From Candidatus Marinacidobacterales bacterium (GTDB taxonomy: Bacteria > Acidobacteriota > Vicinamibacteria > Marinacidobacterales > DATDRI01), in the NCBI GenBank assembly GCA_965226495.1, contig OZ245365.1:5472001-5536000 (forward strand): 64,000 bases of DNA, in the 5' to 3' direction. Position numbers and translations under genes: made by a program. The notes under the pieces were generated by a model. It searched no databases and was not told the origin of the DNA. It saw nothing but the letters and a program-made list of their open reading frames with translations. Position 1 is the first letter of the stretch. Every line of letters begins with the position of its first letter. Shown piece by piece: positions 7,833 to 35,310 of this stretch.

Positions 7833-7840
7833 CGATCAAC

Positions 7841-17442: not shown

Positions 17443-17549
17443 GGTAAGTAGATCAAGCCAAACAATCGAACGGCGCTTTTTACGTCGCTGGGGAGACCCG
17501 AGCGCTAGTGCTCAACCCTACCGCGATTGCGGTGAGCGGAGTGCAACAC

Positions 17550-18399: not shown

Positions 18400-21300
18400 G
18401 TGCAGGAGGAGCGCCCGAAACCTCTGTCGCGATGGCGGCAGAAGTTGAAACAGATCAGGGTGAACATGGAGCAGGGAAAACAGAGGCATGCAAAACCGCT
18501 AACCGCGATGAAACGGCTCGCCGGTTGGTTAATCCTAAGCCCGAGCCGCTGGCTGGTACTGCTTTCTTTCCCGGCCGTACTGATCTTACTGGTCATGGTT
18601 CGAGCGGATCCTTTCCCTCCGTTCTGGGAGGGCGGCACCGGAACAGCGATTCACTATCAGCCGGTCGTTTGGCCCACGGACGACGGGGACGGAGAGCTCG
18701 ACAACGGGGACTGGACGCCGTACACCATGATCGGCGCCGACATCCAAGATCCTAAGGTTCAAGACCCTTCCAATGGGGGAACCTCGCCGCAAAACTACGT
18801 CAACATCAGCTCTGGTTGCACCGACCTGACACTACCCAGCACGTTCACCTATTTCGACGCGACGAGCCAAGTGCTCATGTTCCGCTGGCGTGTCGAGCAA
18901 ATCGCTCATACTTACGCCACCGGACCGAACGCCGGGACTGCTTCCGCGACCGATCCATGGAAGTCCGGGTTGTGGACCGTGCTCATCGACATCGACGGCG
19001 ATGGTTATCGAGAGTTTGCTATTCATCTCGACGGGTCGAGCGGCTCACCAGGCACCGACATCGATCGAATCGCCAGTATTTACAGCGACACCCCTAATCA
19101 ATCTATCGATTATGTCAACGACTCCAATATCTGCTTGCTCGAGCACAACCCAACCGCCTTCGTCGACGGTCCCACGCCGGACGGCAACACGAATCGTATT
19201 CTGAATTTTCAGAATAGTCTGACACCAACGGCATCATGGCCCAACGGCAACAGCGAGTCGGTCTGGGACTATGGAACGACTCGAGCGGTAGAGGTGGATC
19301 ACGGCACGTGTATCGAGTACTTCGTCGATTACCAGATTCCACTCGCCATGCTCAATGCGACGGCGTCGGCGTGTAACGGACCCCAGGTCACCGAAGACAC
19401 GCCGATAAGTCTCTTGTTCGCGACCGCGAACAGTCTCAACAACCCGTTGCAGAAAGACGTGGTCCTCTTTGGTGACTATATCGGCGACCCCGATGCTCCG
19501 GCCCCTTTCGGCGATCCGATAACACCCGGAGGGGGTCCTCTCCCACAGCCCGTCATCTCCGCGGTCACCGCTGCCAGCTGTGGACCGGCCACGCTTACCG
19601 CAACGGTGACCGACTCGACTCAGGTCAGCGGCGGTTCGGTCGTCGACTCAATCGCCACCGTCGACTTCTATTACTACGCAGACACCAACGCCAACGGTCA
19701 GCCGGACGACGGAAGTTCTTGGACCCCGGCCGCCGGCGCCACGAGCCCGTCATTGGGAACATGGACCGCCAGCTGGGACTCAACAAACTTGGCGCAGGGA
19801 CAGTATCTGATCGGCGTCCGGGCGGAGGATGATCAAGGCAACGTCACGTGGAGTCACCTGACGGCGGCGCAAGCGTCCCCTGATTTTGCCAACCCCACCC
19901 CCGACCCTGGCGTCGTTTTCGCGACGTTCGTCAACACCTGCGGCTCATCGCCCACCGCAAGCAAGGGCGCCAACGCCTCGGCGGTCACCGCCGGAGATCC
20001 GGTGCAGTTCACGATCACCGTGAACGCGAGCCTCGTATCCCCGCTATCGGTGAGCCAAATCGATGACGTGCTCCCGCCGGGATGGATATTCGTGAGCACA
20101 GACGGCGGCACGCTCACCCCGGCGACTTCATCACCAACTGCTGGCCAGACGGGCACCGTCTCCTGGACTTTCGCACCGGCGACCGTGATCGCAGCGGGCG
20201 GAAGCGGGACGATCGTCTTTACCGCCAGCGCTTCAACCGTCGTTGGCACTTACACCAACGTAGCCAACGCGACCACCGATCAAGGCACTGTCGAGACCAA
20301 CCCCGTCGAAGTGGCAGTGGGTGCCCCACAACTCACGATCGCGAAGAGCGCCGACGTCGCTTCCGCCGATCCCGGTGATCCGGTTACCTACACGATCACC
20401 TACTCCAACGATGCCTCGGTCACCGTGACCAATGCGGTCATCACCGATGCCCTACCGCTAGGCCTGACTTTCGTCTCGGCTGCCAACGGCGGAGTTCATG
20501 ATGGAGGGACGCCGGGGACGATTACCTGGAACATCGGTACCATCGCCGCCGGCGATGGTCCTTTTGCGGTGAGTTTCACCGCCACGGTGGACAATCCTTA
20601 TCCGGCTCTCGCCACGGTACCCTTGGTGAATACGGGAACCATCGACTCCGATCAGACGAGTCCCCTCAACGCGGATGCGTCGGTCTTCGTGAACGTCCCC
20701 CGACCCTCGCTCGCCATTCAAAAGGATGGCGACGTCACTCAGGTGCTGCCCGGAAATAACGTCGTCTACACCATCACTTACGTCAATACAGGTAACGCCG
20801 ACGCCACCAGTGTCGTCATCACAGACCCCGTACCCGCTGGCTTCACGTTCGTTTCGGCGACCGGCGGCGGTACTCACGATAGCGGAAGCCCGGGAATCGT
20901 CACCTGGAACGTGGGGACCGTTGCCGCCGGTGGCACGGGCTCGGTGATGCTGACGCTTCAAGCGACCGCCAGCGCCGCCAATCCGACTACGAATACGGCC
21001 ACCATCACCGGAACTGGAATCACTCCTGTTTTCGACGACTACGACGTGGGCATCACGCAGGGTGCTTGTGCCGTCCCCACGACCTACTACTTCAAGAACG
21101 CTACTGCCGACGTCGGATTCGCTGGGACTCGGAACATTGCGAATACGACGGCGCCCACAAGTGCGACTCCGACGGTCACCTCTACCGTCAGCGTCGGTCC
21201 GGCGAGCGCCGGTCGCACCGAGCTCCTTCGTTTCTATCAGGATCCCCCGCAGGGAAGCGCGTTCGATTTCTCGCAGGCGGTCACTGCAACCGTCTACGTG

Positions 21301-24300
21301 GACAAGAGCGGGTCACCACAGGCTATCTTCTGGTTGACCCTGTTCGATTATGATCCGGTCACCGGTACCGAAACCCAGCTCGCCACCGCCAGCACGAGTG
21401 TCCAAGGCAACAAAACGAACGAGCCGGCTGCGTTCAATCTCGGCACCCCTACCCTCACGGTTCCAGAGACCCATCGCTTGCTCTGGGTCGTCGAGGGCAC
21501 CAATGGCCACGGGGGTCAAACCAACGACGTGGCCGTCCGCTACGACGGCACGGGAAGCCCGAGCGCCTCCGACATCTGCACCAGCCCGATCACCCTAACG
21601 CTGGACAAGCAAGTCGATGTGCTCTCGGCTGGGCCCGGCGACACGCTCGTCTACACGCTCAAGTACGCCAACACCGGCCAGGGCAGTGTGACCAATGCGG
21701 TGCTGACCGATACGTTACCCGTCGGCGTTTCCTTCGACTCCGCGTTACCCGTCGCGGCGAATTGCACCGAGTCCCTCGGCGTTGTCACATGTAATTTGGG
21801 CACCGTGGCAGGAGGGACTTCAGGAACGGTGACGATCACCGTCACCGTCAGTCAGCCTCTGGCGGCAGGCATCTTCTCACTCCAGAACGATGCCACCCTC
21901 GACAGCCTCGAGACCGAACCGGTGAACGATTCGGCGACGACGACCATCGTCCGCCCGGTGCTCGGTATCACCAAGTCGGCCGACGACACGCTGCTCATTC
22001 AAGGGGACACCGTTACCTACACGCTGGAGATCACCAATAGCGGGAGTGCTAGCGCTGCGAGCGTATTGGTGAGCGACTCGCTCCCCGTCGATACGTACTT
22101 CTCGTACGTCGGGTCCAGTTGTTCCGTCGACATCTCCCTGGCACCTTCCACGTCGTCGACCACTTGCGGCGAAGCCGCCGGGGTAGTGACGGCCACCGCG
22201 GACGTTCTCGCCGTCGGCGAGACCCTCCGCATCGCCTTTCAAATGACTGTGGGTGCGGGACCGGCACCGGCGGGACTAACCGTAAAGGACAACTTCGCGA
22301 GCGCATCCGACGACAACTCCCCGAGCGTGAGCAGCAATACGGTGACAGTCACCATCAGCACCAATCCCAACTTGCAACTCGCTAAATCGTCGAACCCGGC
22401 GGCGGGTCCGCTGGATCCAGGAGATCCCGTCACCTACACGCTAGTCTTGGGTAACACCGGCTCGACCGCAGCCGATGATGTCTTGGTCGTCGACCCGATC
22501 CCGGCCAACACCAGCTACGTTCTCGGAAGCCTGATCTTTCAAGCCGTAACCCAGACGGATCCGGATGACGTCGATACCGGGCATTTCGACGCGGTGGGGA
22601 ATCGGGCCGTCTTCGATATCGGCTCCTTGGCTGCCGGCGCGTCCCGCACCATGAGCTTCCAGGTCACTGTCGATTCTCCACTACCAAACGGAACAACGCC
22701 CGTTGACAACACGGCGACAGCTACGGCTAGCAACACCGCAACCAAGCAAGCGAGCGCCAACCTCACTGCGAGCGCCGCGCCCAATCTCACTCTTACCAAG
22801 ACGGCACCGGCCACACTCGCCTTCCCGCTCACCATGCTGTCGGCGACCGTGACTGCGTCCGTAACCATCAACGTAGACGATGCCGACTTGATAGGCGTCA
22901 ACGACTACGTGTCCGTCAATGGCACGGGGGCGCGCGTTACCGCCAAGACCGGCAACACTCTGACCTTGGACACCGCGGTTACCGGCAGTGCCGGCGACAA
23001 CGTGAACCCGGTTATCGCGTTCGTGCTGCGTTACGAGAACACTGGAAACGCAAACGCCACCAACGTGTCGGTCACCGATTCACTTCCAACAAATACGGTT
23101 TTCGTCGCGGCGGACAGCGGTGGCACTCACGACGCGGGCTCACCGGGGACGGTCTCTTGGAGCCTGGGAACCGTACCGGCCGGCGGAGCCGGTAGTCTCA
23201 AGTTCTGGGCGCGACCCACCGTCGCCGGAACCTACAACAACAACGGGACCATCGATAGCGACGAAACGTCGCCCACCAACTCCAACACCACGGTGACGAC
23301 CATCGGTGCGCTGCAACCCACCAAGGTAACCAGCACGCCTAGCGTCACCAACCCAGGAGCACAGGCGACCTACACGATCTCCGTCTTCAACGGGACTGGC
23401 TCGCTCGCCACCGCCATCAACATCACCGACGAGATGGAAAAAGGCTTCAGCTTCGCAAGCAACGTCGGCTTCAATATCACCGGCGGAACGGGAGGCTCGC
23501 GGACCAGCACCACCGACCCCACGTCTGGAGACAATCCGGCGACCTGGTGCTGTTGGGATCTATCGGCCGGGGCCACGCTCGACATCCAGTATCTGGCTAA
23601 CCTATCGGACGAGGTCGGCGACGGGACTTACCAGAACAACGTGACCGTGGACTCGCAAAGCTCCAGCCACCTCCTATTCGATTTTCTGGCCACGACCCAG
23701 GAAGACGTGACCGTGAACTGGATCGGGCCGAACCATGTCGTGCTTTCCTGGATAGAGGCCTTCTACGAACAGGGCTTGGTCGTGGTGCAATGGCAAACCG
23801 ACGCCGAGGTGCGCACTTCCGGCTTTTACCTTAAGCGTTACCGACCCGAGACCGATAGGTACGAGGCGGTGCATGAAGATATGCTGCCGAGCGTCGTCGG
23901 ATCCCCTCAGGGCGGCACCTACCGGGTCGTCGATGAGGACGCGCCGCTTGGCGGTCCTCTCTCTTATGTCCTTCTGGAAATCGAGAACAACGGCAAGGAA
24001 AGAAGCTACGGACCGTTTAGCCTCGAAGTGCGCGACCAACCGTCGCTGCACGTATCCACGGCGGGGGGAACAACGAGGCCGGGCTTCCATCGAACGCCCC
24101 GTTCCCGCAGCCCGCGGAATGGACTCAACCGCTCTACCGCGGCTCTCGAAAGCCGCCGTGTCGCAAGGCGAGGAGGAAGCCGCGGCCTGAAGATAGCCGT
24201 CGATGAGTCGGGTCTCTACCGGGTAGAAGTCGCCGAGATCACCGAAGCACTCGGCCTGAAACTGGGCAGGGCGGCGCGGCTTCTACGCAAACATCGGCTG

Positions 24301-26253
24301 CGGCTCTCGGTAGACGGCGCGCGGATTCCATACTTGATTGAGGGCAGAGGCAATACCTCGGCTCTTCTATTCTACGGTGAGGGCTTCGACAGCGTCTATG
24401 CGTCGCACCGCACGTACCGCCTCAGCACCGGCCGCAGCAAGCGCATAGCGTCGGTTTCCGGCTACCCCGACGGGGTGGCGTTCGATCGGCAAACCTTCCG
24501 GGATACGGTTCGCTTCGAGGAGGATCATGTCCCCTTGGTGCTCGGGGAAGTGGACGGGGATTCGGACTTCTGGTTCTGGGACTACGTTATCGCGGGCGAC
24601 ACGCCGAAGATCTTTCCGATCGACGTGCGAGGAGTTGCACCCACCACAACCGAAGCCATCCTTCGTGTTTTCCTGCGTGGTGCCGTTGACACTGGGGCCG
24701 GCGTCCACCAGGTTCGCGTTCTCTTCAACGGCGAGCTCGTAGGACACGCTCTCCTCGAAGGCTTCGACGGCGGCGCGTTCTCTTTCGCCATACCAGCTTT
24801 TCTGCTTCGCGAAGGAGCGAATACCGTCGAGCTCGAAGGCGTGCCCCAACCGGATGTGCCGTACAGTATTGTGTATTGCGACAGTCTCTCGCTCGTGTAT
24901 GAGCGGACGTACCAGGCCCATAACGCCGCTTTGTTAGCGCGTAGCGAGGACAAGGAAGTCCTGAGCATCGGTGGATTCCCGGAACCGGACGTTCGAGTCC
25001 TCGATATCACCGACCCCCTGTTTCCACGAGAGGTTCGAGGAGTCGTGACAGAAGTGGCCCCGCTTGACGGTTATCGGGTGAGGTTTGCGTCAGTGCAGGA
25101 TGCCAAGTACCTGGCGGTCAGTGCGTCCGGTGTTCGGAAACCGGCCTCTCTACGCTGGGACTATCCGTCCCGCCTGCGAAATCGAAAGAACTCCGCCGAT
25201 TACCTGATCATAACCAGCGCCGAGCTCGCGCCTACCGCGAAGCGACTCGCCGCGCACCGCGCGGGGCAGGGACACCGCACCATGACTATCGATCTAGACG
25301 ACATCATGGATGAGTTCAATGCGGGCAACTTCGACCCTCGCGCAATCCGCTCTTTTCTCGCTCACGCTTACGCGCGCTGGCGAAAACCACCGCGCTATGT
25401 CGCGCTGGTCGGCGAAGGCACTTATGACTACAAGGACATCCGAGGGTTCGGTAACAACCATGTGCCTCCACTCATGGTTGGCGGCAGCTGGGGCCTCTAT
25501 GGCGCCGATAATCGGTTGGCCGATCTGGTCGGTGACGACGGCGTCCCCGAGATCGCCATCGGGCGGATCCCGGTGGAAAACGCCGAGCAATTGGAAGCCT
25601 ATATCGATAAGCTCATCGCCTACGAACAAAATGACGACGAGACATGGACGCGGCAAGTCTTGTTGGCCGCCGACAATCCGGACGACACCGGCGATTACCC
25701 AGCCGACAGCGAGGACTATGCAGCGTTGCTCCCCGAAGAGCTGGTGGCAAATCGGGTCTATCTTGGGCAGCTCACCGCCGAGGAGGGCTTCGAGCTGCTC
25801 ATCGCCAACTTGAACGAGGGCGTCTCCTTGATGACCTATCTGGGTCATGCCGGAATCACCCAGCTCTCCAATGAAGCACTCCTTCGCAGTGCCGACGTTC
25901 CCAACCTCACGAACGGGGACCGGCTGCCAGTGATCGCCGTGATGGGCTGCCACCTGGGCAATTTCTGGTTGCCTGGTTATTCTTCACTTGCAGAAGACCT
26001 CGTGCTCCATCCCGACGGTGGCGCGGCAGGGGTTTGGTCACCTGCCGGGCTCTCCTACAATCCTCAACGGCGGATTCTGGGAGAAGCCTATCTCCGGGCG
26101 GTCTATGAAGAAGGAATCGTGATTCTAGGCGATGCGGTCCTGCGCGCCTTGGCCGTTGCCGCGACACAACACGCCAGCGGACGGCGGGAGGTCCTGGAGA
26201 CGCAGGTTCTCTTGGGCGATCCGGCGCTAAGGCTGAAGAGCGACCACCGATGA
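18400..26253 (+). CDS. giant exported protein: about 8 DUF11-type repeats and a C-terminal C25 (gingipain/PorU-like) cysteine peptidase domain (start may be 18466 or 18508)
   Basis: Signal peptide; repeats of type L.I.K.......PGD.VTYTI.Y.N.G...AT.V.ITD.LP.G..FVSA; C25 features ADYLIIT, YVALVGEG, IAIGRIPV, YLGHAG (His), MGCHLG (Cys) and LLGDPAL. Confidence 0.88.
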   Translation: MQEERPKPLSRWRQKLKQIRVNMEQGKQRHAKPLTAMKRLAGWLILSPSRWLVLLSFPAVLILLVMVRADPFPPFWEGGTGTAIHYQPVVWPTDDGDGELDNGDWTPYTMIGADIQDPKVQDPSNGGTSPQNYVNISSGCTDLTLPSTFTYFDATSQVLMFRWRVEQIAHTYATGPNAGTASATDPWKSGLWTVLIDIDGDGYREFAIHLDGSSGSPGTDIDRIASIYSDTPNQSIDYVNDSNICLLEHNPTAFVDGPTPDGNTNRILNFQNSLTPTASWPNGNSESVWDYGTTRAVEVDHGTCIEYFVDYQIPLAMLNATASACNGPQVTEDTPISLLFATANSLNNPLQKDVVLFGDYIGDPDAPAPFGDPITPGGGPLPQPVISAVTAASCGPATLTATVTDSTQVSGGSVVDSIATVDFYYYADTNANGQPDDGSSWTPAAGATSPSLGTWTASWDSTNLAQGQYLIGVRAEDDQGNVTWSHLTAAQASPDFANPTPDPGVVFATFVNTCGSSPTASKGANASAVTAGDPVQFTITVNASLVSPLSVSQIDDVLPPGWIFVSTDGGTLTPATSSPTAGQTGTVSWTFAPATVIAAGGSGTIVFTASASTVVGTYTNVANATTDQGTVETNPVEVAVGAPQLTIAKSADVASADPGDPVTYTITYSNDASVTVTNAVITDALPLGLTFVSAANGGVHDGGTPGTITWNIGTIAAGDGPFAVSFTATVDNPYPALATVPLVNTGTIDSDQTSPLNADASVFVNVPRPSLAIQKDGDVTQVLPGNNVVYTITYVNTGNADATSVVITDPVPAGFTFVSATGGGTHDSGSPGIVTWNVGTVAAGGTGSVMLTLQATASAANPTTNTATITGTGITPVFDDYDVGITQGACAVPTTYYFKNATADVGFAGTRNIANTTAPTSATPTVTSTVSVGPASAGRTELLRFYQDPPQGSAFDFSQAVTATVYVDKSGSPQAIFWLTLFDYDPVTGTETQLATASTSVQGNKTNEPAAFNLGTPTLTVPETHRLLWVVEGTNGHGGQTNDVAVRYDGTGSPSASDICTSPITLTLDKQVDVLSAGPGDTLVYTLKYANTGQGSVTNAVLTDTLPVGVSFDSALPVAANCTESLGVVTCNLGTVAGGTSGTVTITVTVSQPLAAGIFSLQNDATLDSLETEPVNDSATTTIVRPVLGITKSADDTLLIQGDTVTYTLEITNSGSASAASVLVSDSLPVDTYFSYVGSSCSVDISLAPSTSSTTCGEAAGVVTATADVLAVGETLRIAFQMTVGAGPAPAGLTVKDNFASASDDNSPSVSSNTVTVTISTNPNLQLAKSSNPAAGPLDPGDPVTYTLVLGNTGSTAADDVLVVDPIPANTSYVLGSLIFQAVTQTDPDDVDTGHFDAVGNRAVFDIGSLAAGASRTMSFQVTVDSPLPNGTTPVDNTATATASNTATKQASANLTASAAPNLTLTKTAPATLAFPLTMLSATVTASVTINVDDADLIGVNDYVSVNGTGARVTAKTGNTLTLDTAVTGSAGDNVNPVIAFVLRYENTGNANATNVSVTDSLPTNTVFVAADSGGTHDAGSPGTVSWSLGTVPAGGAGSLKFWARPTVAGTYNNNGTIDSDETSPTNSNTTVTTIGALQPTKVTSTPSVTNPGAQATYTISVFNGTGSLATAINITDEMEKGFSFASNVGFNITGGTGGSRTSTTDPTSGDNPATWCCWDLSAGATLDIQYLANLSDEVGDGTYQNNVTVDSQSSSHLLFDFLATTQEDVTVNWIGPNHVVLSWIEAFYEQGLVVVQWQTDAEVRTSGFYLKRYRPETDRYEAVHEDMLPSVVGSPQGGTYRVVDEDAPLGGPLSYVLLEIENNGKERSYGPFSLEVRDQPSLHVSTAGGTTRPGFHRTPRSRSPRNGLNRSTAALESRRVARRGGSRGLKIAVDESGLYRVEVAEITEALGLKLGRAARLLRKHRLRLSVDGARIPYLIEGRGNTSALLFYGEGFDSVYASHRTYRLSTGRSKRIASVSGYPDGVAFDRQTFRDTVRFEEDHVPLVLGEVDGDSDFWFWDYVIAGDTPKIFPIDVRGVAPTTTEAILRVFLRGAVDTGAGVHQVRVLFNGELVGHALLEGFDGGAFSFAIPAFLLREGANTVELEGVPQPDVPYSIVYCDSLSLVYERTYQAHNAALLARSEDKEVLSIGGFPEPDVRVLDITDPLFPREVRGVVTEVAPLDGYRVRFASVQDAKYLAVSASGVRKPASLRWDYPSRLRNRKNSADYLIITSAELAPTAKRLAAHRAGQGHRTMTIDLDDIMDEFNAGNFDPRAIRSFLAHAYARWRKPPRYVALVGEGTYDYKDIRGFGNNHVPPLMVGGSWGLYGADNRLADLVGDDGVPEIAIGRIPVENAEQLEAYIDKLIAYEQNDDETWTRQVLLAADNPDDTGDYPADSEDYAALLPEELVANRVYLGQLTAEEGFELLIANLNEGVSLMTYLGHAGITQLSNEALLRSADVPNLTNGDRLPVIAVMGCHLGNFWLPGYSSLAEDLVLHPDGGAAGVWSPAGLSYNPQRRILGEAYLRAVYEEGIVILGDAVLRALAVAATQHASGRREVLETQVLLGDPALRLKSDHR

Positions 26254-26314
26254 CGGAAAGTTCTATAATGACTCTTTCCAACAAACTACTCTTAGCAGCG
26301 GGAGAGCAAATGGA

Positions 26315-26494
26315 ATGACGAAACCGGACAAGCCTTCCGAACCTCAACCAGAAGAACATTCCGGCGAGCAGCAAAACAAGAAGAAGCCGTACGAGAAACC
26401 ACGGGTGACTTTTCGGGAACCCCTCGAGGGTGTGGCCTCCATTTGTAATCCTCCCGGCAAAGGCGCCCCACCTTGCGAGTTCGCTTCCTCCTAG
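26315..26494 (+). CDS. putative RiPP precursor peptide, 59 aa
   Basis: Manual translation MTKPDKPSEPQPEEHSGEQQNKKKPYEKPRVTFREPLEGVASICNPPGKGAPPCEFASS*; GGAGAG RBS 8 nt upstream; YxxP leader motif; directly upstream of peptidase, kinase, PqqD and rSAM genes. Confidence 0.85.
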   Translation: MTKPDKPSEPQPEEHSGEQQNKKKPYEKPRVTFREPLEGVASICNPPGKGAPPCEFASS

Positions 26495-27851: not shown

Positions 27852-28129
27852 GCCACGCCTTGCGCAAGGACGTCCGCTACCGGCTCCTCCTCAACGAAGC
27901 TGTTGTCATTCGACAAGATGCGGCCGAAGTTCTCGGATTGAACCTTGTCGGAGCCCGAGTCCTCGAGCTGATTGACCAGGGGCATGGCCAGAACGTGATC
28001 TTGACGTCACTCGCGGAGGAGTTCGATGTCGCTCCGCGCGAGCTCGAAGCGGATGTGAGCGCTTTCCTGCGAGAGCTCGTGGAACTCGATGTTATCGAGA
28101 GTGTTCAGACCGCGACCGGATCCAACTGA
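27848..28129 (+). CDS. PqqD family protein (RiPP recognition element)
   Basis: 93 aa; EAVVI...EVLGLNLVGARVLELID......L.EEFDV....LEADVSAFLRELVELDVI. Confidence 0.9.
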   Translation: MSHALRKDVRYRLLLNEAVVIRQDAAEVLGLNLVGARVLELIDQGHGQNVILTSLAEEFDVAPRELEADVSAFLRELVELDVIESVQTATGSN

Positions 28130-28130
28130 T

Positions 28131-29195
28131 ATGGGCTACCACGATGTGATGAAGCGGATGGCCGATGAGTACGGCCTGTTGTCGGTCCTCTTGGAGCTCA
28201 CCTACCGTTGCAACCTCGATTGCTTCTTCTGCTACAACGATCTCAACCTCGAGGGGGAGCGACTTTCCACCGAGGACTATCTCCGTCTACTCCAAGACCT
28301 ACGCGACTTACAGGTTATGGTTCTCGTTGTTTCAGGCGGAGAGCCTTTGGCGAGTCCGGCGTTTTGGCCTCTCGGGGTTAGGGCCCGAGAGTTGGGCTTC
28401 GTCACCCGCATCAAATCGAACGGGCACGCCTTGGGAAAAGAAATCGCGCACCGGTTGAAGACCGAGTTGGACCCCTATATCGTCGAAATCAGCCTACACG
28501 GCGCTTGCGCCGAGACCCATGACCGCCAGACTCGGGTCGAAGGAAGCTTCGACAAGCTGACCGCCAACCTAGAAGAGATGCGCCGGGCTGGTTTGCGGGT
28601 CAAGCTCAACAGCACGTTCACCCGCTGGAACGAGAACGAAATCGATAAGATGTTCGCCCTCGCAGACGAAATGGATATTCCGCTTTCTATCGATGCTGTG
28701 GTTACCCCCAGAGACGACGGCGATCGCGAGCCCCTCGCAATCGCCGCCTCGGCCGAAGGCGTGGCGCATCTCTATTCATTGCTCCGAGAGCGAAAAGGGC
28801 AGCCTCCCCAAGAGACGTTCTCGGTTAGCCAGAATGCTCGGAAGAACTGCGGTACCGGCTCCGCGACACTCGCGGTCGATCCCTTTGGAAACGTGTACCC
28901 GTGCATTCAGTGGCGCAGGCCGGTTGGAAACCTACACCGACAATCGGTCAAGGAGATCTGGGGCGGATCCAACAAAGCGCTCGATGAGATCCGGCAATTG
29001 AACACAGAAGCGGGGCGATTGGTGGACAGCTTGGGCCCCGCGGGTCAGGACATGGGATTCTGCCTCGGGCTGGCGGAAGAGCTGACCGGCGATCCTCTCG
29101 CTCTTTATCCCCAGGCCGAGCGAAACCTGCGCGTCCTGCAAGAATTACAGACGAAAACCGAGACGATACGCCTGCCTATTTACGGACAGGACTAA
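28131..29195 (+). CDS. radical SAM protein with a reduced SPASM/twitch domain
   Basis: ELTYRCNLDCFFCY (CxxxCxxC), SGGEPL, ISLHG and CGTG...VDPFGNVYPC. Confidence 0.93.
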   Translation: MGYHDVMKRMADEYGLLSVLLELTYRCNLDCFFCYNDLNLEGERLSTEDYLRLLQDLRDLQVMVLVVSGGEPLASPAFWPLGVRARELGFVTRIKSNGHALGKEIAHRLKTELDPYIVEISLHGACAETHDRQTRVEGSFDKLTANLEEMRRAGLRVKLNSTFTRWNENEIDKMFALADEMDIPLSIDAVVTPRDDGDREPLAIAASAEGVAHLYSLLRERKGQPPQETFSVSQNARKNCGTGSATLAVDPFGNVYPCIQWRRPVGNLHRQSVKEIWGGSNKALDEIRQLNTEAGRLVDSLGPAGQDMGFCLGLAEELTGDPLALYPQAERNLRVLQELQTKTETIRLPIYGQD

Positions 29196-30822
29196 TTCCT
29201 TTCGGGTCTCGATCGAGCCCGACAACAACTCCCACGATAACACTGAGAAGTGCCGCGTTCGCGGGCAGATGAAGACTGAAATCGGTGAAGCTATGAAGCG
29301 CGATTGCCAACGCCGCCGAGCAATATCCGGCGTGCAAATGGAGTGCGGCACGGTCACCGAGTAGCCTTTGTCGAGTGTGCCAAGCCGCCTTCCAAACGCT
29401 GACTACGAGCCACAAGAAAAGTAGCAGCCCGGGAACGCCGAGCTCTATAAGAAGCTGCAAATAGTCGTTGTGGGTGTGGGTGTAGGAGACAGCCCCTCCA
29501 AAGCTTCGGTAGATGGGGAAGATGTGACCGAAGGTGCCTAAACCCGATCCGGTAAGCCAGAAATCGCTCGTCGCCTGCACGCTGTCCGACCACACTCGCT
29601 GACGCCCCACCTCCGCGTTCCAAAGCTCGGCGACCGCGTCGAAACGCTGAGCCAAGATACCCATTCCAAACCAAATGACGATCCCGGCGACGACGAAAGA
29701 GAAAGCTCGAAGGCTTCGCGCCGCGTAGCGCGCCGGTTCGCCAGCACGAACTTCGATCGGCCCTGCTTCTGGCGATCGCGAGCCGGCCAATACGGTGAAG
29801 AACGCAAGGGCGGCTACCGCCGCGATGATCCCCGACCGGGAGAGCGAAAAGAGGAGCCCCAGGCCAATCACGATGAGCCCGAAGCCCACAACGACGGACT
29901 TGGCTCGCGACTCTTGCCGGACGACATTGGCTAGGCGCGAGAAGCCGCTTCTTCGTGCGTCACCGGCGTCGACACGAGCCATCCGAGCACCAATCCAGCC
30001 GACGCTCACGAGCAAGAGCATTTCCATGCTGGCAGCATAATGGTTGGGGTTGCCAAACGTCCCGCGAGCTCGGAGTCCCACATCCGACGGATCGGCGCCG
30101 AGCAGTTCCTGCAATCCAACAAGCCACTGAGCTACCCCGTAAAGACCAGCCGCGACACCCACTATCAGGAACATCGACGAGAGACGGTCAACGGAGCGGC
30201 GATTCGAAGCCAAGCAAACGCCAACGTAGAAAAGAGCGAGGTAGGCCACCCAAAGGCAAAGTCCGCGCTCGGTTAGAAAGCTAGACAATGTTATGGGTGC
30301 TTCGATCGAAACTTCGTCGTCGAGCATAAGGCCTTGAGCTGCCATCCGGATCTCGCTCGCTCGCGGGGATAGCCGAAGCATCCAACCTTCACTCAGTGGT
30401 AGTAAGGACGCTCCCATCCAAACGGTGAGCAGCAAAAGGGGCATTCCCAAGCTGGCTCGCTTGAATTCGTATCCGGCACAGAAGAAGGAATCGGGGCGCC
30501 TCTCAGGACGACCCGGAAGCAGAATCTCGACTCCCGCTGTACTTCCTCTGGCAGGAAAGAGGCCTAGACTCAACATACGGCTCACGGTAGCTAGGTGCGG
30601 ATACCGAACGGCGAAAGGCAGTTTCCGCGAGGCACGCCGTTCCTCCAAGTTGCGCGCCCTTTCTTCCGGCTTGGTAGACCACAGGACACGCAAGAGAACC
30701 CATGACAAGAGAGAACCCGCCCCGAGCTCAAGGAGGAGGGTAGCCCACGGCGCGTAGCCTCCCCAACCCAGGGTCACACAAACCAGCCATAGCACGATGA
30801 CGTAGGGAAGGTGACGGAGCAT
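29176..30822 (-). CDS. O-antigen ligase / oligosaccharyltransferase (Wzy_C) family membrane protein
   Basis: RARGTFGNPNHYA, SLSRSG, GSGLGTF, HTHNDYLQLLIELG and HSFTDFSLH motifs. Confidence 0.88.
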   Translation of the reverse strand: MLRHLPYVIVLWLVCVTLGWGGYAPWATLLLELGAGSLLSWVLLRVLWSTKPEERARNLEERRASRKLPFAVRYPHLATVSRMLSLGLFPARGSTAGVEILLPGRPERRPDSFFCAGYEFKRASLGMPLLLLTVWMGASLLPLSEGWMLRLSPRASEIRMAAQGLMLDDEVSIEAPITLSSFLTERGLCLWVAYLALFYVGVCLASNRRSVDRLSSMFLIVGVAAGLYGVAQWLVGLQELLGADPSDVGLRARGTFGNPNHYAASMEMLLLVSVGWIGARMARVDAGDARRSGFSRLANVVRQESRAKSVVVGFGLIVIGLGLLFSLSRSGIIAAVAALAFFTVLAGSRSPEAGPIEVRAGEPARYAARSLRAFSFVVAGIVIWFGMGILAQRFDAVAELWNAEVGRQRVWSDSVQATSDFWLTGSGLGTFGHIFPIYRSFGGAVSYTHTHNDYLQLLIELGVPGLLLFLWLVVSVWKAAWHTRQRLLGDRAALHLHAGYCSAALAIALHSFTDFSLHLPANAALLSVIVGVVVGLDRDPKGISPVRK

Positions 30823-30838
30823 TTGCCTTGTTGCCTTG

Positions 30839-32038
30839 TTACGAACCTTCTGCAGATGGCTTGTTCAGAAGCAAGAGTTGTCTAAGCTCTCCATCGGCTT
30901 GGGAATGTTGCGGATGGAGCCGCAGGACTTCCCGGTAGGCCTCAATCGAGGCACGCCGTTTCCCGGCCTTGCGGTACACACGGGCCAAGCCAAGCCGTGA
31001 GTCGGGATCGTTGGGAGCAGCTTCGGTGGCCTTCAGCAAGAGGCTCTCTGCCATAACCACCTGGTCCGCCCTCAGATACTGGTAGCCCATGCCTCTCAAA
31101 AGCTCCACGCTAGCCGAAGACGATGCGCCGGCATGACGCTCTACCTTCTTTAACGCTTCGCTAAAGGCCTCATACGCTCTCTCCGGCTGACCTAGCTCGA
31201 GATGAGCCCTCGCTACCACCAAGGCGGCGCGAGCAAAATCTCTCCCCGCGCGCCCCGAGCGATCCTCCTGCTCGAGCCACTCCTGCCCCGTTCGAAGCGC
31301 GATTGCGGGCGCGTTCCATTCGAAGGCCCATCGTGCCGCGTCGAAGAAAAATTCTCTCTCCGAGGCCGATTCGAGAACCCCGGCGAGAACGTCCAGGGCT
31401 TCGGTTCTGTGCGACGACCTGGCGAGGGCTAGGGCGAGCTCTTTTCTTGCCGGAACGGTCTCGGGTGTCAGGTCGCGCCACTTGTCCGCCGGCACGCCGC
31501 TCCAAGCGACGAGCTTCAACGAGGCGGGGACGAGGTCGGGCTCTAGCTTCATCGCCAACGCCAGATGACCCAGCCCGCGACGGCGAGCATCACCGAACTC
31601 GTCCGACCTTCGCGACGCCACCTTTTCTATTCGAAGCGGCTCGACCCTAGGTGTAAGCAACCATTGCGCGTACGCGAAACGAAGACGTCCATTAGAAGGA
31701 GAAAGCTCGATGGTCGCTTCGAAGGCCCGCTCGGTGAGCTCGCGTTCTTCCAGTCGATTTGCCAAAAAAGCAGCAAGTAGAAATGGCGACTGATAGGAGG
31801 CGGGAGCCTCTTTCAACGATTGGCGAAGATAGGGCAGAATGCTACCAGAGAAGTTCTTGGACTCGATGGCGTGACGAGTGAGGCCCAATGTTGCTTCGGG
31901 ATGTCGCAGCCGTGGGCTCGACTCGAGCTCGATCTCACTGGGAAAGCGCGCCCAGCTCTCTTGCTCATAGAAGAAGAACGAGGCCCCTGCATAAGCGCCT
32001 GCGACGATGGCGAGGATGCTAGTCAGGACGAAACGCAT
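30839..32038 (-). CDS. exported or membrane-anchored tetratricopeptide repeat protein
   Basis: N-terminal hydrophobic segment; TPR-like helices, e.g. APNDPDSRLGLARVYRKAG...YREVLRLHP. Confidence 0.7.
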   Translation of the reverse strand: MRFVLTSILAIVAGAYAGASFFFYEQESWARFPSEIELESSPRLRHPEATLGLTRHAIESKNFSGSILPYLRQSLKEAPASYQSPFLLAAFLANRLEERELTERAFEATIELSPSNGRLRFAYAQWLLTPRVEPLRIEKVASRRSDEFGDARRRGLGHLALAMKLEPDLVPASLKLVAWSGVPADKWRDLTPETVPARKELALALARSSHRTEALDVLAGVLESASEREFFFDAARWAFEWNAPAIALRTGQEWLEQEDRSGRAGRDFARAALVVARAHLELGQPERAYEAFSEALKKVERHAGASSSASVELLRGMGYQYLRADQVVMAESLLLKATEAAPNDPDSRLGLARVYRKAGKRRASIEAYREVLRLHPQHSQADGELRQLLLLNKPSAEGS

Positions 32039-32060
32039 GGTGTTGCAGAAAGAATGGAGT

Positions 32061-34034
32061 CTATTTCCCTACCGCGAGCGAACGGCTCCCCAAGGGCACC
32101 GAGTCGGACCGCGACTCGCCGAAGGGCGGTGACACGAGGCGTGCTTCGGGGAGCACATCACTCAATACCAGCCGGATCGCACTATCCTTCTCCTCGAACG
32201 AGTACTGTTCCAGGCGGCGAAGGGCCGACTGCACCACGTCTTCAGGGTAGGGACCTATCTTGCCGATACGGATCTTGGGGTGTCGAGTCATGGAAACCAA
32301 CTCGCTGCTGAGCTGCAGCTCCTCGTGGAGTTTCTCCCCCGGACGAAGACCGGTAAAGACGATTTCCACATCCTCGAACGGTTTGAGACCCGAAAGCAGG
32401 ATCATGTCGCGCGCCAGATCCAAAATGCGCACCGACTCGCCCATGTCGAGAATGAATATCTCACCCCCTTCTCCCATGGCACCCGCCTGAAGAACTAGTT
32501 GAGCCGCTTCGGGAATGGTCATGAAATAGCGCCTCACCTGGGGATGGGTGACGGTCACCGGTTCACCCCGCTCGATCTGTTCTCGAAAAATGGGGATCAC
32601 GGATCCGGCCGAACCCATGACGTTTCCAAACCGAACCGCGACGTAACGAGTCGGAAAGCGACGCCCGAGATCCTGCACGATCAGTTCGGCCATCCTCTTC
32701 GAAGCTCCCATAATGGATGTCGGTCGGACCGCTTTGTCGGTGGAAACGAGCACAAACGTACTCACGCCGAGCTCACCGGCCAGCACCCCGAGCGTATTGG
32801 TGGCGAGCGCGTTGTTCTTGATGGCTTCGGTGGGATGCAATTCCATCATCGTAACGTGTTTGTGAGCCGCGGCGTGCAAAATCACGTCGGGCCGATGTGT
32901 CGACAGAACCGAACGAATTCTCTGCGCATCCCCTACATCAGCCACTATCGGAACTAACTCTAGGCTCGGGTACAATCGCCGGAGCTCCCGTTCCACGTCG
33001 AAGAGGGCAAACTCTGCACGCTCCAAGAGTAGGAGACGCTCGGGAAGGAATCGGGCCACCTGACGCGCCAGCTCAGATCCGATGGACCCCCCGGCACCGG
33101 TGACCGCAACCGTCTTACCAGCCAGAAACTCCTGTACCTCGTGTTCGTCCAACTGAACCTGTTCGCGTCCAAGCAAATCTTCTATGTCCACGTCGCGTAT
33201 GGCGCTGACGGAAACTCGTCCCTCCAGGATCTCGTAGAGTCCAGGAATGATTCTTACTTTGATCGGAATCCGTTCACAGATTTCAACGATCCTTCGAACG
33301 CTACGCCGAGAGGTGGCAGCAATGGTGATGACCACTTCGTCGATCTTGAGCTTCTTCGTGAGGTGCGGTAAATCCAGGGTCCCCCCTAGAACTTGAATCC
33401 CCTGAATGACGAGCGCATGTTTGTATCGGTCGTCGTCGACGAAACCCATTAACTCGAGGCCCGAGTCGGTCCGCCGCTGAATCTCTTTCGCAACCATGAC
33501 GCCCGCCTCGCCCGCACCAACGAGCAAGACCGCCTTCCGACGCCCGCCGCGAGGGCTCCCGGACCGTTTTTCGAACCGCTCGTGGATCGTTCGCCGGAGT
33601 ACCCGAAGAGCCAACACCCCACCAAACCCGAGCACGGTGGACATCATTAGGATGGAGGTTGGGACGCGCCACCGGTGGAAGTCATCCGGTAGGCCGAAAC
33701 GCATCAAGATGAGGGGCAGGAAAGACCAAAGAGCTGCTTTGACAAAAGCCCCGCTCTCCGCCACACCGACGTAACGCCAGACGAAAGAGTAGACGCCCGC
33801 GATGAGGAGCATCGTGAACTGTACCAGGACGACCAAAGGTAGCTGAGTGATCCCGCGCAGCAGGTTGGTCTCAGGAATACGAAAATCGAATCGAAGGAGG
33901 TAAGACAAACAGAATGCAGCCGCCAAGACGGCGAGATCGAGAGCGAACTGGAGTCGGCGGCTGAGCAGACGACTCCACCAGCGAGGGGACCTCGCCCGTT
34001 CGGTTCTCTCCGTTTTGCTCACTGGTTGGGTCAC
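32061..34034 (-). CDS. membrane-bound UDP-GlcNAc 4,6-dehydratase (PglF/CapD/WbpM-like)
   Basis: N-terminal TMs; VTGAGGSIGSEL, HAAAHKHV, STDKAVRPTSIMGASKR, RFGNV and GLRPGEKLHEEL. Confidence 0.93.
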   Translation of the reverse strand: MTQPVSKTERTERARSPRWWSRLLSRRLQFALDLAVLAAAFCLSYLLRFDFRIPETNLLRGITQLPLVVLVQFTMLLIAGVYSFVWRYVGVAESGAFVKAALWSFLPLILMRFGLPDDFHRWRVPTSILMMSTVLGFGGVLALRVLRRTIHERFEKRSGSPRGGRRKAVLLVGAGEAGVMVAKEIQRRTDSGLELMGFVDDDRYKHALVIQGIQVLGGTLDLPHLTKKLKIDEVVITIAATSRRSVRRIVEICERIPIKVRIIPGLYEILEGRVSVSAIRDVDIEDLLGREQVQLDEHEVQEFLAGKTVAVTGAGGSIGSELARQVARFLPERLLLLERAEFALFDVERELRRLYPSLELVPIVADVGDAQRIRSVLSTHRPDVILHAAAHKHVTMMELHPTEAIKNNALATNTLGVLAGELGVSTFVLVSTDKAVRPTSIMGASKRMAELIVQDLGRRFPTRYVAVRFGNVMGSAGSVIPIFREQIERGEPVTVTHPQVRRYFMTIPEAAQLVLQAGAMGEGGEIFILDMGESVRILDLARDMILLSGLKPFEDVEIVFTGLRPGEKLHEELQLSSELVSMTRHPKIRIGKIGPYPEDVVQSALRRLEQYSFEEKDSAIRLVLSDVLPEARLVSPPFGESRSDSVPLGSRSLAVGK

Positions 34035-34167
34035 GCGTCCGGAATCCCCGGCAAAAAGATCCGGTATTGCTCTCGTTGGCGCGTATTAGGGGAATGCTAT
34101 ATTAGGCTGTTATTGTCTTATTTTGCCACACTTTACAGGAACTTACAATGAGAAAGGGGGGGGCATA

Positions 34168-35310
34168 TCAGGCGCCGCGGCACTGGCGCCGAATGAGATC
34201 GATGACTCTACGACGCTCGCCATCGCCGAGATTGGAGCCACTCGGTAAACACAGCCCTCGCTCGAAAAGCTCCCGCGCCACGCTGCCGCCTTTGATCCCG
34301 CAGCCGGAAAAAACCGGCTGTAGATGCAAGGGCTTCCAGACCGGCCGCACCTCGATGTCCTCCCTCGCCAATGCTTCTCGGACGTCGTCCCTCGTCGCCC
34401 CGAAGTGAGCAGGATCGATCGTCAGGCAAGTCAACCAACGCGTGGAGCGACCGTAGGGCGCCTCGGGCATGAACTCTATGCCGGGCAATCCGCCTAGACC
34501 TTGGAGATAGCAATCGAAGTTATCCCGTCGGGCCTCGATGCGCTTCTGCAATAAGCCCAACTGACCGCTCCCGATGGCCGCGAGGACGTTACTCATCTGA
34601 TAGTTGTAGCCAATCGTAGAATGCTCGTAGTGAGGCGCTTCGTCTCTTGCCTGGCCGGCCAGGAACCGAGCTCGCTCGATGAACCGGTTGTCGTAAGAAA
34701 CGAGCATGCCGCCACCCGAAGTCGTGATGATCTTGTTGCCGTTGAACGAGAAGGCGCCGAGCTTTCCAAATTGCCCCACGCTCCTACCCTTGTAGGTCGC
34801 ACCGAGTGCCTCCGCGGCGTCTTCGATAACCGGAACGTCGTACTCGCGGCAGGCCCCCAAAATGCGATCGTAGTCGGCACTCTGGCCGTAGAGGTCGACC
34901 ACCACCACCGCACGCGGGAGCTTGCCTCGCCGAGCGCGGATCCGAAGCTCCTCCCACAGGAGATCGGGATCCATGTTCCAAGTTGATCGTTCGGAGTCGA
35001 TGAAGAAGGGTCGTCCCCCCTCATAGACAATAGGGTTCGCGCTGGCACTGAAAGTAAGCGTTGAGCAGAGGACTTCGTCCCCCGACTGCACCCCCACCAA
35101 ACGAAGTGCCAAATGAATGGCTGCCGTTCCGGACGAGAGCGCAACCGTATGTGGGACGCCCACTACCTCCGCAAACTCCTTCTCGAAATTCTCGATGTGA
35201 GGACCAACGGGAGCGATCCAGCCGGACGCTAACGCGTCCTGCACGAGGGTCCACTCGATGTCACCCAGATGGGGAGGAGAAAGATAGACGCGCTCTACAC
35301 CATTAGCCAT
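34168..35310 (-). CDS. DegT/DnrJ family sugar aminotransferase (PglE/EpsN-like)
   Basis: YLSPPH, SSGTAAIHLAL, EDAAEALG and SFNGNKIITTSGGG (PLP Lys). Confidence 0.93.
   Translation of the reverse strand: MANGVERVYLSPPHLGDIEWTLVQDALASGWIAPVGPHIENFEKEFAEVVGVPHTVALSSGTAAIHLALRLVGVQSGDEVLCSTLTFSASANPIVYEGGRPFFIDSERSTWNMDPDLLWEELRIRARRGKLPRAVVVVDLYGQSADYDRILGACREYDVPVIEDAAEALGATYKGRSVGQFGKLGAFSFNGNKIITTSGGGMLVSYDNRFIERARFLAGQARDEAPHYEHSTIGYNYQMSNVLAAIGSGQLGLLQKRIEARRDNFDCYLQGLGGLPGIEFMPEAPYGRSTRWLTCLTIDPAHFGATRDDVREALAREDIEVRPVWKPLHLQPVFSGCGIKGGSVARELFERGLCLPSGSNLGDGERRRVIDLIRRQCRGA

Follow-up and report, generated by a model that had tools for sequence, protein, structure and literature searches.

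A family of probably radical-SAM-modified peptides in Acidobacteriota encoded with PqqD, an HprK-fold kinase and a PorU-like C25 protein

Within a 64,000-nucleotide stretch of the genome of a 'Candidatus Marinacidobacterales' bacterium of the phylum Acidobacteriota (GCA_965226495.1, contig OZ245365.1, positions 5,472,001 to 5,536,000; hereafter the window, by which we mean this whole stretch), a gene of 59 codons probably encodes the precursor (A) peptide of an undescribed family of ribosomally made peptides that are modified by a radical S-adenosylmethionine (radical-SAM) enzyme. It lies in an operon with the order giant protein with DUF11 repeats and a PorU-like C25 domain, peptide, S24/S26-fold peptidase, HprK/PEPCK-fold kinase, PqqD and radical-SAM enzyme, the four downstream genes being tightly packed on the same strand as the precursor gene. 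Members of the Acidobacteriota occur in abundance and are difficult to cultivate, and almost nothing is known of the chemistry of their peptides. The family described here is large and sharply defined, is represented neither in the curated libraries nor in the searchable literature, and combines parts from separate worlds of RiPPs (ribosomally synthesized peptides with post-translational modifications) with a sortase-like C25 protease.

Identification of the precursor gene

The encoded peptide can be divided into a variable, charged N-terminal segment, a conserved leader and a presumed core (Table 1). Direct translation reproduced all the features that an earlier examination of this DNA, made from the letters alone (the sequence-only reading), had listed, namely the segments KKPYEKPRV and FREPLEGVA, the spacing C44-x4-K49-x4-C54, the terminal S58-S59 and the ribosome-binding site. 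The same reading had called the open reading frame (ORF) "hidden", which is correct insofar as its 59 residues fall one below the 60-residue default of the ORF lister; its relatives, however, have already been called by public gene callers as unnamed or hypothetical proteins.

An open frame is by itself no evidence of a gene in this G+C-rich DNA because ORFs abound in it: 142 ORFs of at least 40 residues overlap a stretch of 18 kb, and two long ones lie antisense to the precursor ORF. It is conservation that supplies the proof. A word-indexed search of 5.8 billion proteins yielded 15 candidates, all of which are homologues of 57–66 residues (E = 8e-29 to 1e-7). In the alignment of these close homologues Y26, P29, the block from T32 to A41, C44, P46, P47, G48, K49, S58 and S59 are invariant, and residues 1–22 diverge freely. 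The last 35 codons of the precursor were also compared with those of eight related loci. Six diverged loci show 16–23 synonymous against one or two non-synonymous codon differences, nearly all at third positions, and the counts for the two near-identical ones (L003 and L005) are four and two. This pattern settles the strand and the frame of the ORF, and, as judged by codon-level comparison, confirms it as a real gene that is translated and under purifying selection. The opposite view, that it is a chance open frame of a kind expected in such DNA, could appeal to the numerous chance ORFs, including the two on the opposite strand, but is already refuted by the synonymous excess, the 283 clusters of relatives and the fixed synteny described below, and we attach a negligible probability to it. 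The gene is present once in the window's genome. A promoter scan returned no promoter-like site, and a terminator scan returned six terminator-like sites against 3.4 expected, none of them meaningfully placed.

The peptide family and its conserved signature

A profile built from 16 sequences and scored against 1.84 billion representatives (clusters at 50% identity) recovered 283 clusters of relatives at E ≤ 1e-3, 14 of them at E ≤ 1e-10, with nearly all members being 42–92 residues long. Motif counts were made on 163 sequences, namely the window's peptide, its 15 homologues and 147 new ones among the 150 profile matches listed. The C-terminal residue is Ser in 158 of the 163, Thr in four and Arg in one. 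The core contains exactly two Cys residues in 158 of 161 peptides, and a Lys between the pair in 160 of 161, this Lys being preceded by Gly in 123 and by Ala in 29 (152 of 160). An Ala three residues before the first Cys is found in 160 of 161, with the residue at position -3 relative to it being mostly small (A in 96, G in 28, V in 21 and S in 5). The leader consensus across the 161–163 members is Y-x-x-P ... [LIM]-E-x-x-A. In an alignment of 140 sequences P29, C44 and C54 are invariant, and Y26, E38, A41, K49 and S59 are conserved in at least 90%. Judged from these alignments, the arrangement C...[G/A]-K...C...S-COOH is the hallmark of the family. As only four core residues (Cys, Lys, Cys and the C-terminal Ser) are invariant, its chemistry is a compact experimental question.

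The spacing of these residues is uneven in its conservation. The sequence-only reading had emphasized a "symmetric" C-x4-K-x4-C core, and this description fails beyond the nearest relatives: the offset from the first Cys to Lys ranges from 4 to 15 in the family counts, mostly 5–7, and is 2 in a clade with short cores (C-x-K). With the Cys-Lys spacing being this variable, symmetry is a trait of the window's clade only. The offset from the second Cys to the terminal Ser is tighter, at 5 in 98, 7 in 43 and 6 in 15 of 161 peptides. Weak matches restricted to the leader were considered as a separate RiPP class sharing that leader; this was rejected, as they belong to the same family with a shorter core.

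Several members depart from the single short precursor gene. One ORF (P0054) contains two leader repeats, and in two long called proteins (P0040, 714 residues; P0135, 277 residues) the peptide lies at the C-terminal end, the start probably being mis-called. Two or three precursor genes with differing cores stand in tandem at four loci (L055, L072, L073 and L074). A look-up in the Protein Atlas, which serves as a lead only, gave unnamed clusters with scores of 0.90–0.91, the commonest phyla being Acidobacteriota and Myxococcota.

No model in Pfam or NCBIfam (release of June 2026) matches the peptide. A literature search found no description of the peptide family or of a radical-SAM/PqqD/HprK/C25 module, although subscription journals and supplements, which lie outside that search, might hold one. 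Text searches of the RRE-Finder paper (PMC7470986) and of PMC12710340 encountered no mention of HPr, a kinase or a signal peptidase, and the part of PMC13642348 that is available gives only counts of clusters containing a RiPP recognition element (RRE) and of ranthipeptide clusters in peatland metagenomes.

Gene neighborhoods and phyletic patterns

Twelve close loci were gathered from genome and metagenome contigs, one of which (L003) belongs to a 'Candidatus Marinacidobacterales' metagenome-assembled genome. The C25 gene precedes the peptide gene in 11 of them, the twelfth having no upstream DNA. An S24-like gene follows the peptide in ten and is lacking in the most distant two (L004 and L014); the kinase is likewise found in ten, the two other contigs ending before it; and PqqD and the radical-SAM enzyme are encoded on all five contigs that are long enough to reach them. 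The sequence-only reading had cast the peptide as the precursor of a PqqD/radical-SAM system, and this holds up, with the Y-x-x-P motif, both Cys residues, G-K and the terminal Ser being conserved throughout the syntenic loci.

A phylum-wide survey of 401 Acidobacteriota genomes, including one unpublished (G152), detected the peptide in 90 genomes representing 65 of 228 genera. Within 9 kb on either side of the 18 best loci, a radical-SAM gene is present in 17, genes for PqqD, the kinase and the C25 protein in 16 each, and an S24-like gene in three. Within 6 kb of 16 weaker loci with short cores, the radical-SAM gene is present in 12, PqqD in 10, the kinase in three, C25 in 11 and the S24-like gene in five. 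In total, C25 is thereby found in 27 and the S24/S26-like gene in eight of the 34 loci. The sequence-only reading had no place for a C25 partner and has to be amended on this point, given the frequency with which a PorU-like C25 gene accompanies the peptide. At the level of whole genomes, 86 of the 401 contain both the peptide and a radical-SAM homologue at E ≤ 1e-70, four only the peptide, 15 only the radical-SAM homologue and 296 neither; the corresponding numbers for C25 at E ≤ 1e-30 are 77, 13, 65 and 246. As the sampled genomes are relatives of one another, these tables should be read as descriptions of a pattern, not as statistical tests. Peptide and radical-SAM gene are all but inseparable, and C25 is a frequent neighbor that is also found without the peptide.

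A short precursor that is co-inherited with a radical-SAM enzyme and PqqD (86 of the 90 peptide genomes) is the general mark of RRE-dependent radical-SAM RiPPs. We hold it to be very probable that the peptide is a genuine RiPP-type precursor of this radical-SAM/PqqD pair, and likely that it represents an RRE-dependent radical-SAM RiPP, with possibly new cross-link chemistry.

The order and orientation of the genes differ between clades. In L052 the order is kinase-PqqD-radical-SAM-peptide-C25, and the C25 protein, of 1495 residues, has its protease domain in mid-protein with fn3/PKD repeats behind it. In genome G005 (L049, G005:C13; 5902-7191 and 11457-12752) the pair of C25 protein and peptide is duplicated in tandem beside a single kinase/PqqD/radical-SAM set, with the two peptides differing in one residue. 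Five loci (L057, L064, L066, L067 and L073) that had the look of orphan peptides were rejected as such: all five genomes encode a strong radical-SAM homologue, in four of them 12–15 kb away on the same contig. The idea that short-core genomes are devoid of the kinase was dropped in the same way; homologues occur in all five genomes checked, at 7–17 kb from the peptide in four, and an absence of the kinase is therefore not shown. In five genomes that have no adjacent S24 gene, only weaker matches on other contigs were detected (best E = 7e-15 to 8e-11).

A distinct arrangement of kinase genes was observed at one of the short-core loci (L078, G093:C1, 12717-16245 on the minus strand), where two paralogous HprK-fold kinase genes flank a PhyH dioxygenase gene, with a methyltransferase gene beside them, between uvrC and uvrB. 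This pair stands 7–10 kb from the peptide module, and similar tandem pairs are found 10–17 kb away in G264, G001 and G284. The tandem kinase/PhyH set may constitute a second, unrelated peptide-modification cluster.

Table 1. Coordinates in the window of the precursor gene, its parts and the associated genes
Feature	Position	Strand	Remarks
Precursor peptide gene	26315-26494	+	59 codons and stop; translation MTKPDKPSEPQPEEHSGEQQNKKKPYEKPRVTFREPLEGVASICNPPGKGAPPCEFASS
Ribosome-binding site GGGAGAG	26300-26306	+	Read from sequence; 8 nt before the ATG at 26315
N-terminal part of leader, aa 1-22, variable and charged	26315-26380	+	Only M1 conserved
Conserved leader, aa 25-41, PYEKPRVTFREPLEGVA	26387-26437	+	Y26-x-x-P29-x-V31 at 26390-26407; Ala41
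Presumed core, aa 42-59, SICNPPGKGAPPCEFASS	26438-26491	+	C44, G48-K49, C54, C-terminal S59
Giant surface protein, 2617 aa, eight DUF11 repeats and C-terminal C25 domain	18400-26253	+	Pfam; C25 at about 25201-26250
S24/S26-fold peptidase, 136 aa	26503-26913	+	Starts 8 nt after the peptide stop
HprK/PEPCK-fold P-loop kinase, about 325 aa	26874-27851	+	Start uncertain; overlaps the S24 gene
Discrete PqqD-family RRE, 93 aa	27848-28129	+	PF05402, 1.8e-12
Radical-SAM enzyme, predicted Twitch-type C-terminal domain	28089-29195	+	Radical_SAM, 9e-17; SPASM, 7.9e-8, aa 254-302 only

Sequence and structure of the associated proteins

The radical-SAM enzyme contains an intact CX3CX2C cluster motif followed by an auxiliary-cluster domain, and across 20 sequences the six residues concerned (C41-x3-C45-x2-C48 along with C254, C272 and C325) do not vary. 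None of these 20 sequences has the CX2CX5CX3C block that marks true SPASM domains; the seven-Cys pattern that would provide two auxiliary clusters (CX9-15GX4C ... CX2CX5CX3C ... C) is represented in them only by C254-x12-G-x4-C272 and C325. By this pattern of conserved Cys residues the protein is a predicted Twitch-type enzyme with a single auxiliary cluster rather than a full SPASM protein with two clusters. The short-core clade possesses a fourth auxiliary Cys, as a CxxC, and the window's clade three Cys ligands. The best full-length NCBIfam matches are the mycofactocin enzyme MftC (100.6 bits, cut-off 265) and the sactipeptide enzyme StsB (91.8 bits, cut-off 625), and the nearest relatives of solved structure are BlsE, PqqE, SkfB and CteB. 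The true start of the gene is likely to be the ATG at 28131, one base past the PqqD stop; homologues align only from about residues 11–17 of the called protein. In L003, the closest public relative, the radical-SAM gene is split over two frames (7792-8890), pointing to a frameshift or an assembly error.

The PqqD protein, examined in an alignment of 21 sequences, has its best NCBIfam matches among lasso peptide PqqD chaperones (31.4 and 26.9 bits), all under cut-off. The kinase matches HprK-related kinase A (47.5 bits) and ScmC (36.9 bits) in NCBIfam, both far under cut-off, and a sequence search against solved structures gave no match at E ≤ 1. Its AlphaFold2 (AF2) model, with a predicted local distance difference test score (pLDDT) of 87.5, retrieved ATP-PEPCK (E = 1e-8) and then the HprK/P structures 1knx and 1kkl (E = 4e-5) in Foldseek. 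Across 20 sequences N151, R154, H170, the P-loop G185-x-S-x-x-G-K191-x-T (G-x-S-G-x-G-K-S-T in the window) and D208 are invariant, and we take H170 and D208 to be equivalent to the catalytic residues of HprK/P. The model, the structural matches and the conserved motifs together bear out an HprK/PEPCK fold for this protein.

The small protein encoded directly after the peptide displays the motifs G-F-S26-M-A-P, V-H63-R-V, G-D78 and D84, and has no N-terminal membrane segment. Its S24/S26 fold is supported by a match to Pfam Peptidase_S24 (E = 5e-4, 20.1 bits, under the 23.3-bit cut-off) and by an AF2 model (pLDDT 78) for which Foldseek ranks human SEC11 (7p2q_A, E = 3.3e-4) first, with LexA and lambda cI next. 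Sixteen sequences share M27, P29, H63, R64, D78 and D84 without exception, and three of them have Cys in place of Ser as the nucleophile of G-x-S-M-x-P. The fold, the Ser nucleophile in this motif and the invariant His63 as its partner are those of clan SF, in which the ER-type S26B enzymes use a Ser/His dyad.

The giant C25 gene ends 61 nt upstream of the peptide gene. Its product begins with a hydrophobic membrane anchor and matches DUF11 (3.6e-84) and Peptidase_C25 (1.9e-81, residues 2268-2612) in Pfam. The C25 domain has the sortase PorU of the type IX secretion (T9SS) system as its best NCBIfam match (207.6 bits, under the cut-off of 420), and its catalytic G-H and C show no variation across 21 sequences. 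Where the peptide has a short core, its partner C25 domain contains an insertion of about 20 residues, including Cys, between the catalytic His and Cys, which is lacking in the window's clade; the insertion tracks the short-core peptides, so that protease subtype and peptide subtype vary together. Elsewhere in the window's genome, four further giant ORFs of 951 to 6188 residues with a closely related C25 domain (E = 1e-91 to 1e-95) lie within 55 kb at G000:C1:614196-667778, and no precursor match was found near those four. Directly upstream of the window's giant gene is a 254-residue ORF (17508-18272, plus strand) without a match in Pfam or NCBIfam.

Proposed maturation route

In the route that we favor, the leader from P25 to A41, with Y26-x-x-P29-x-V31, would be held by the discrete PqqD protein as the RRE, which would present the core to both enzymes, the Twitch-type radical-SAM protein and the HprK-fold kinase. 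The radical-SAM enzyme would act on both invariant Cys residues, most probably forming two thioether rings in which each Cys is the donor to a downstream carbon, with Lys49 and the C-terminal Ser59 as the best candidate acceptors. The kinase would phosphorylate a Ser, most likely Ser59. The leader would be cut beside Ala41, either at A41|S42 or at S42|I43, by the S24/S26-fold peptidase where it is present, and the product would have a functional connection to the PorU-like C25 domain of the giant protein, for which it could serve as substrate, ligand or regulator.

The recognition step was approached by modeling PqqD with the peptide, each partner with its own alignment. The interface score ipSAE came to 0.51, 0.50 and 0.51 in three runs against 0.02 for the best of three controls, with at least 93% of contacts agreeing between runs and a partner pLDDT of 57. 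The mark applied is reached by 58 of 80 solved complexes and two of 110 mismatched pairs, and at values up to 0.60 by seven of the 80 and by both of the passing mismatches. As RRE-leader complexes have already been solved, the pass of this model may reflect likeness to them. The presumption that Y26-x-x-P29-x-V31 is the RRE-binding motif, already made in the sequence-only reading, thereby gains weak support from the model.

As to the modifications, the invariant Cys pair, along with an auxiliary cluster that leaves a ligand position open, accords with the thioether formation known from sactipeptides and ranthipeptides; in CteB the substrate Cys binds the open auxiliary-cluster site. The near-fixed distance between the second Cys and the terminal Ser suggests a linkage between these two. 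Cys-derived thioethers are nevertheless a tentative assignment, to which we would give slightly less than an even chance. Phosphorylation of Ser59, which is proposed by analogy, may quite possibly occur, with odds falling a little short of even. The S24/S26-fold enzyme is a plausible, if tentative, leader peptidase in the window's clade. The cut between G-V-A and S by the small-residue rule of such peptidases, as postulated in the sequence-only reading, agrees with A41 at -1 and G39 at -3, but accords poorly with the lack of the gene in two of 12 close loci and its presence in only eight of the 34 phylum-wide ones. With the alternative cut at S42|I43, Y-x-x-P-x-V would occupy -17 to -12, the positions of the corresponding motif in lasso leaders.

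A direct interaction between the C25 protein and the peptide, which is suggested by co-inheritance, is possible, at odds somewhat below even. The C25 domain could supply the missing protease activity for leader or core, transfer the peptide in the manner of a sortase, or be the target of a ligand that presents the Lys loop. The most elaborate version of the route, namely a bicyclic peptide with Cys44-Lys49 and Cys54-Ser59 thioethers and a phospho-Ser installed by the HprK-fold kinase, which is handled by the PorU-like C25 protein as a cap or anchor that it transfers covalently, or as a built-in Lys-loop regulator, appears distinctly unlikely when taken as a whole. If true, this bicyclic, C25-handled reading would amount to a new RiPP class and the first link of RiPP chemistry to the sortase-like processing of surface proteins. 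A Cys-Lys cross-link or one from Cys to the C-terminal Ser would, if true, be new enzymology, and a functional C25 link would, if true, point towards construction of the acidobacterial cell surface, and away from antibiosis, as the biological role.

Several observations weigh against one or another step of this route. The complex prediction was graded as weak support only. The radical-SAM enzyme scores far under every curated maturase cut-off, so that its family does not fix the type of reaction, and an acidic acceptor of the kind used by the ranthipeptide enzyme PapB is not conserved in the peptides. Of the 16 short-core loci, 13 have no kinase gene next to the peptide, and the terminal Ser is nevertheless retained there, so that it may owe its conservation to something other than the kinase; in G093 the kinase homologues lie past uvrC and a sulfatase gene, beside the PhyH and methyltransferase genes, and could be part of a different cluster. 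An S24/S26-like gene is missing from 26 of the 34 phylum-wide loci, yet Ala at -1 is found in 160 of 161 peptides; with the Ala being universal and the gene rare, the motif cannot be explained by that peptidase alone. As for C25, it is encoded in 65 sampled genomes that have no peptide and, at E ≤ 1e-30, is missing from 13 that do; signal peptides or an anchor equip the C25 proteins for export, whereas the peptide has no signal and the conserved module no exporter; and the window's genome has four further C25 giants and a single peptide.

Alternative readings

The association with C25 raises the alternative that the modified peptide is a dedicated partner of the PorU-like domain instead of a natural product that acts on its own. 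Its core might form a constrained loop with Lys49 as its P1 residue, which the clan-CD peptidase would cleave or transpeptidate or by which it would be inhibited, or the peptide might be a small anchor or cap that the sortase-like enzyme attaches to another molecule, with the cross-links serving to rigidify the loop. Gingipain-type C25 enzymes cleave on the C-terminal side of Lys or Arg, and the loops of Bowman-Birk/SFTI-type inhibitors are Cys-bridged around a P1 Lys; the nearly invariant Lys flanked by Pro and Gly between the two Cys residues of the family would suit such a role. It would also account for the adjacency of C25 at 11 of the 12 close loci and at 27 of the 34 phylum-wide ones, across different gene orders and at 27–46% identity, for the tandem duplication of the C25-peptide pair in G005, and for the invariance of the catalytic His and Cys in a domain whose best match is PorU. 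However, adjacency among relatives is not independent evidence, and the export of C25 without a signal on the peptide or a conserved exporter is as difficult for this alternative as are the genomes that have only one of the two partners. We consider it unlikely.

Two further alternatives concern the chemistry. In a lanthipeptide-style pathway, phospho-Ser59 would be converted to dehydroalanine, to which Cys54 would add to give a C-terminal lanthionine ring, with the radical-SAM enzyme acting, for example, on Lys49 or Cys44 or as an epimerase. The nearly fixed distance from the second Cys to Ser and the kinase in the operon would be accommodated, but no lyase or cyclase homologue was seen in the conserved module and the terminal Ser persists where the kinase is not adjacent, making this pathway very improbable. 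A lasso peptide precursor was hinted at by the sequence-only reading, which had described the leader as "lasso-like". The leader motif, the discrete RRE with lasso chaperones as its best matches, and a kinase resembling that of phosphorylated lasso clusters all stand; what does not stand is the extension of the likeness to the product, for which a radical-SAM gene is the constant partner instead. The window contains no B2 protein (Transglut_core3, PF13471), the genome's only match being at 2,107,374, and the nearest of eight genomic matches to the lasso cyclase (Asn_synthase, PF00733) is at 5,348,400-5,349,176, more than 120 kb from the locus. With either cleavage site, there is no Asp or Glu at core positions 7–9 (these being G/K/G/A), the first acidic residue being E55. 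In the absence at the locus of B2, of the cyclase and of a ring-closing Asp or Glu, membership in the lasso peptides was ruled out, and only a residual probability attaches to it. Among the readings considered, the RRE-dependent radical-SAM RiPP is the one that we retain as likely.

Genomic surroundings of the module

In the window, the peptide operon is surrounded by an exopolysaccharide locus (14971-17292 and 29176-37710, both on the minus strand) that encodes a Wzz/tyrosine-kinase-type protein, a Wzy_C O-antigen-ligase-like membrane protein, a TPR protein, a PglF-like dehydratase, a DegT aminotransferase, a PglD-like acetyltransferase and a fused GT4/sugar transferase. Synteny of the Wzy_C and TPR genes extends to L003 and L008 but does not reach distant loci. 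In L052 the module lies between genes for a pyruvate-ferredoxin oxidoreductase and an ECF (extracytoplasmic function) sigma factor, and in G093 beside hydrolase, sulfatase and uvrC genes. A function within the exopolysaccharide locus was rejected on account of these other surroundings, and the context seen in the window is incidental given that the module elsewhere stands between unrelated genes. Further along the window is a complete rRNA operon (45259-50627, minus strand) with 5S, 23S, two spacer tRNAs and 16S, which accounts for a stretch without long ORFs.

Comparison with known systems

Systems that combine an HprK-related kinase with PqqD and a radical-SAM/SPASM protein have been defined in NCBIfam/TIGRFAMs as SynChlorMet (Scm) and HPr-rel-A, and we know of no identified product for either. 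The window shares this combination and differs in having one radical-SAM gene rather than two; its proteins match, but stay far under the cut-offs of, ScmC/D/E/F, TIGR04352 and TIGR04353 (ScmC 36.9 against 125 bits, ScmD 24 against 100, ScmE 75 against 400, HprK_rel_A 47.5 against 200). The pathways of pyrroloquinoline quinone (PqqD/PqqE) and mycofactocin (MftB/MftC) likewise use a discrete RRE and a radical-SAM enzyme on a short peptide, MftC being the best full-length match, and the mycofactocin precursor MftA resembles the window's peptide in having an invariant C-terminal residue. Unlike these pathways, the window shows scores under cut-off (265 for MftC and 381 for PqqE), conserved Cys, Lys and Ser residues, and none of the other pathway genes.

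The sactipeptide and ranthipeptide systems (SkfB, CteB and PapB) have in common with the window a radical-SAM enzyme with auxiliary Fe-S clusters, a Cys-bearing core and a leader bound by an RRE. The window departs from them in its separate RRE, its single predicted Twitch-type cluster, the lack of an acidic acceptor, and the presence of the kinase and C25; none of the curated maturases of these groups is reached (StsB 91.8 against 625 bits, AlbA 44.7 against 850). PMC12373016 describes PapB as able to join a Cys within the peptide to the residue at the C-terminus.

The phosphorylated lasso peptides (paeninodin type; BsfA/BsfB1/BsfK of Bradymonadales) come closest in the Y-x-x-P-x-[L/V] leader, the discrete PqqD-type RRE and the HprK-fold kinase. 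As described in the accessible text of PMC10368454, lasso leaders have YxxPxL at -17 to -12, the HprK-like kinases of lasso systems act on the leader-bearing precursor, and the assays of BsfK also contained the RRE protein B1; polyphosphorylation of the C-terminal Ser by ThcoK and SyanK is cited there. In place of the B2 protein, the cyclase and the acidic residue, the window has a radical-SAM enzyme and two invariant Cys residues, and its PqqD and kinase are under the lasso-related cut-offs.

With the T9SS sortase PorU, for which the available text of PMC4560394 describes sortase-like action, the window shares a C25 domain that retains the catalytic His and Cys and has PorU as its best curated match. 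It differs in scoring under 420 bits, in the fusion to DUF11 (PKD/fn3 in L052) and in its occurrence in Acidobacteriota, where no search for T9SS genes was made. The literature search, from which subscription journals and supplements were outside, found no RiPP pathway with a C25/PorU-like partner. On the whole, the system resembles a hybrid in which the leader, RRE and kinase of the lasso type are joined to radical-SAM chemistry of the sactipeptide, ranthipeptide, pyrroloquinoline quinone or mycofactocin type.

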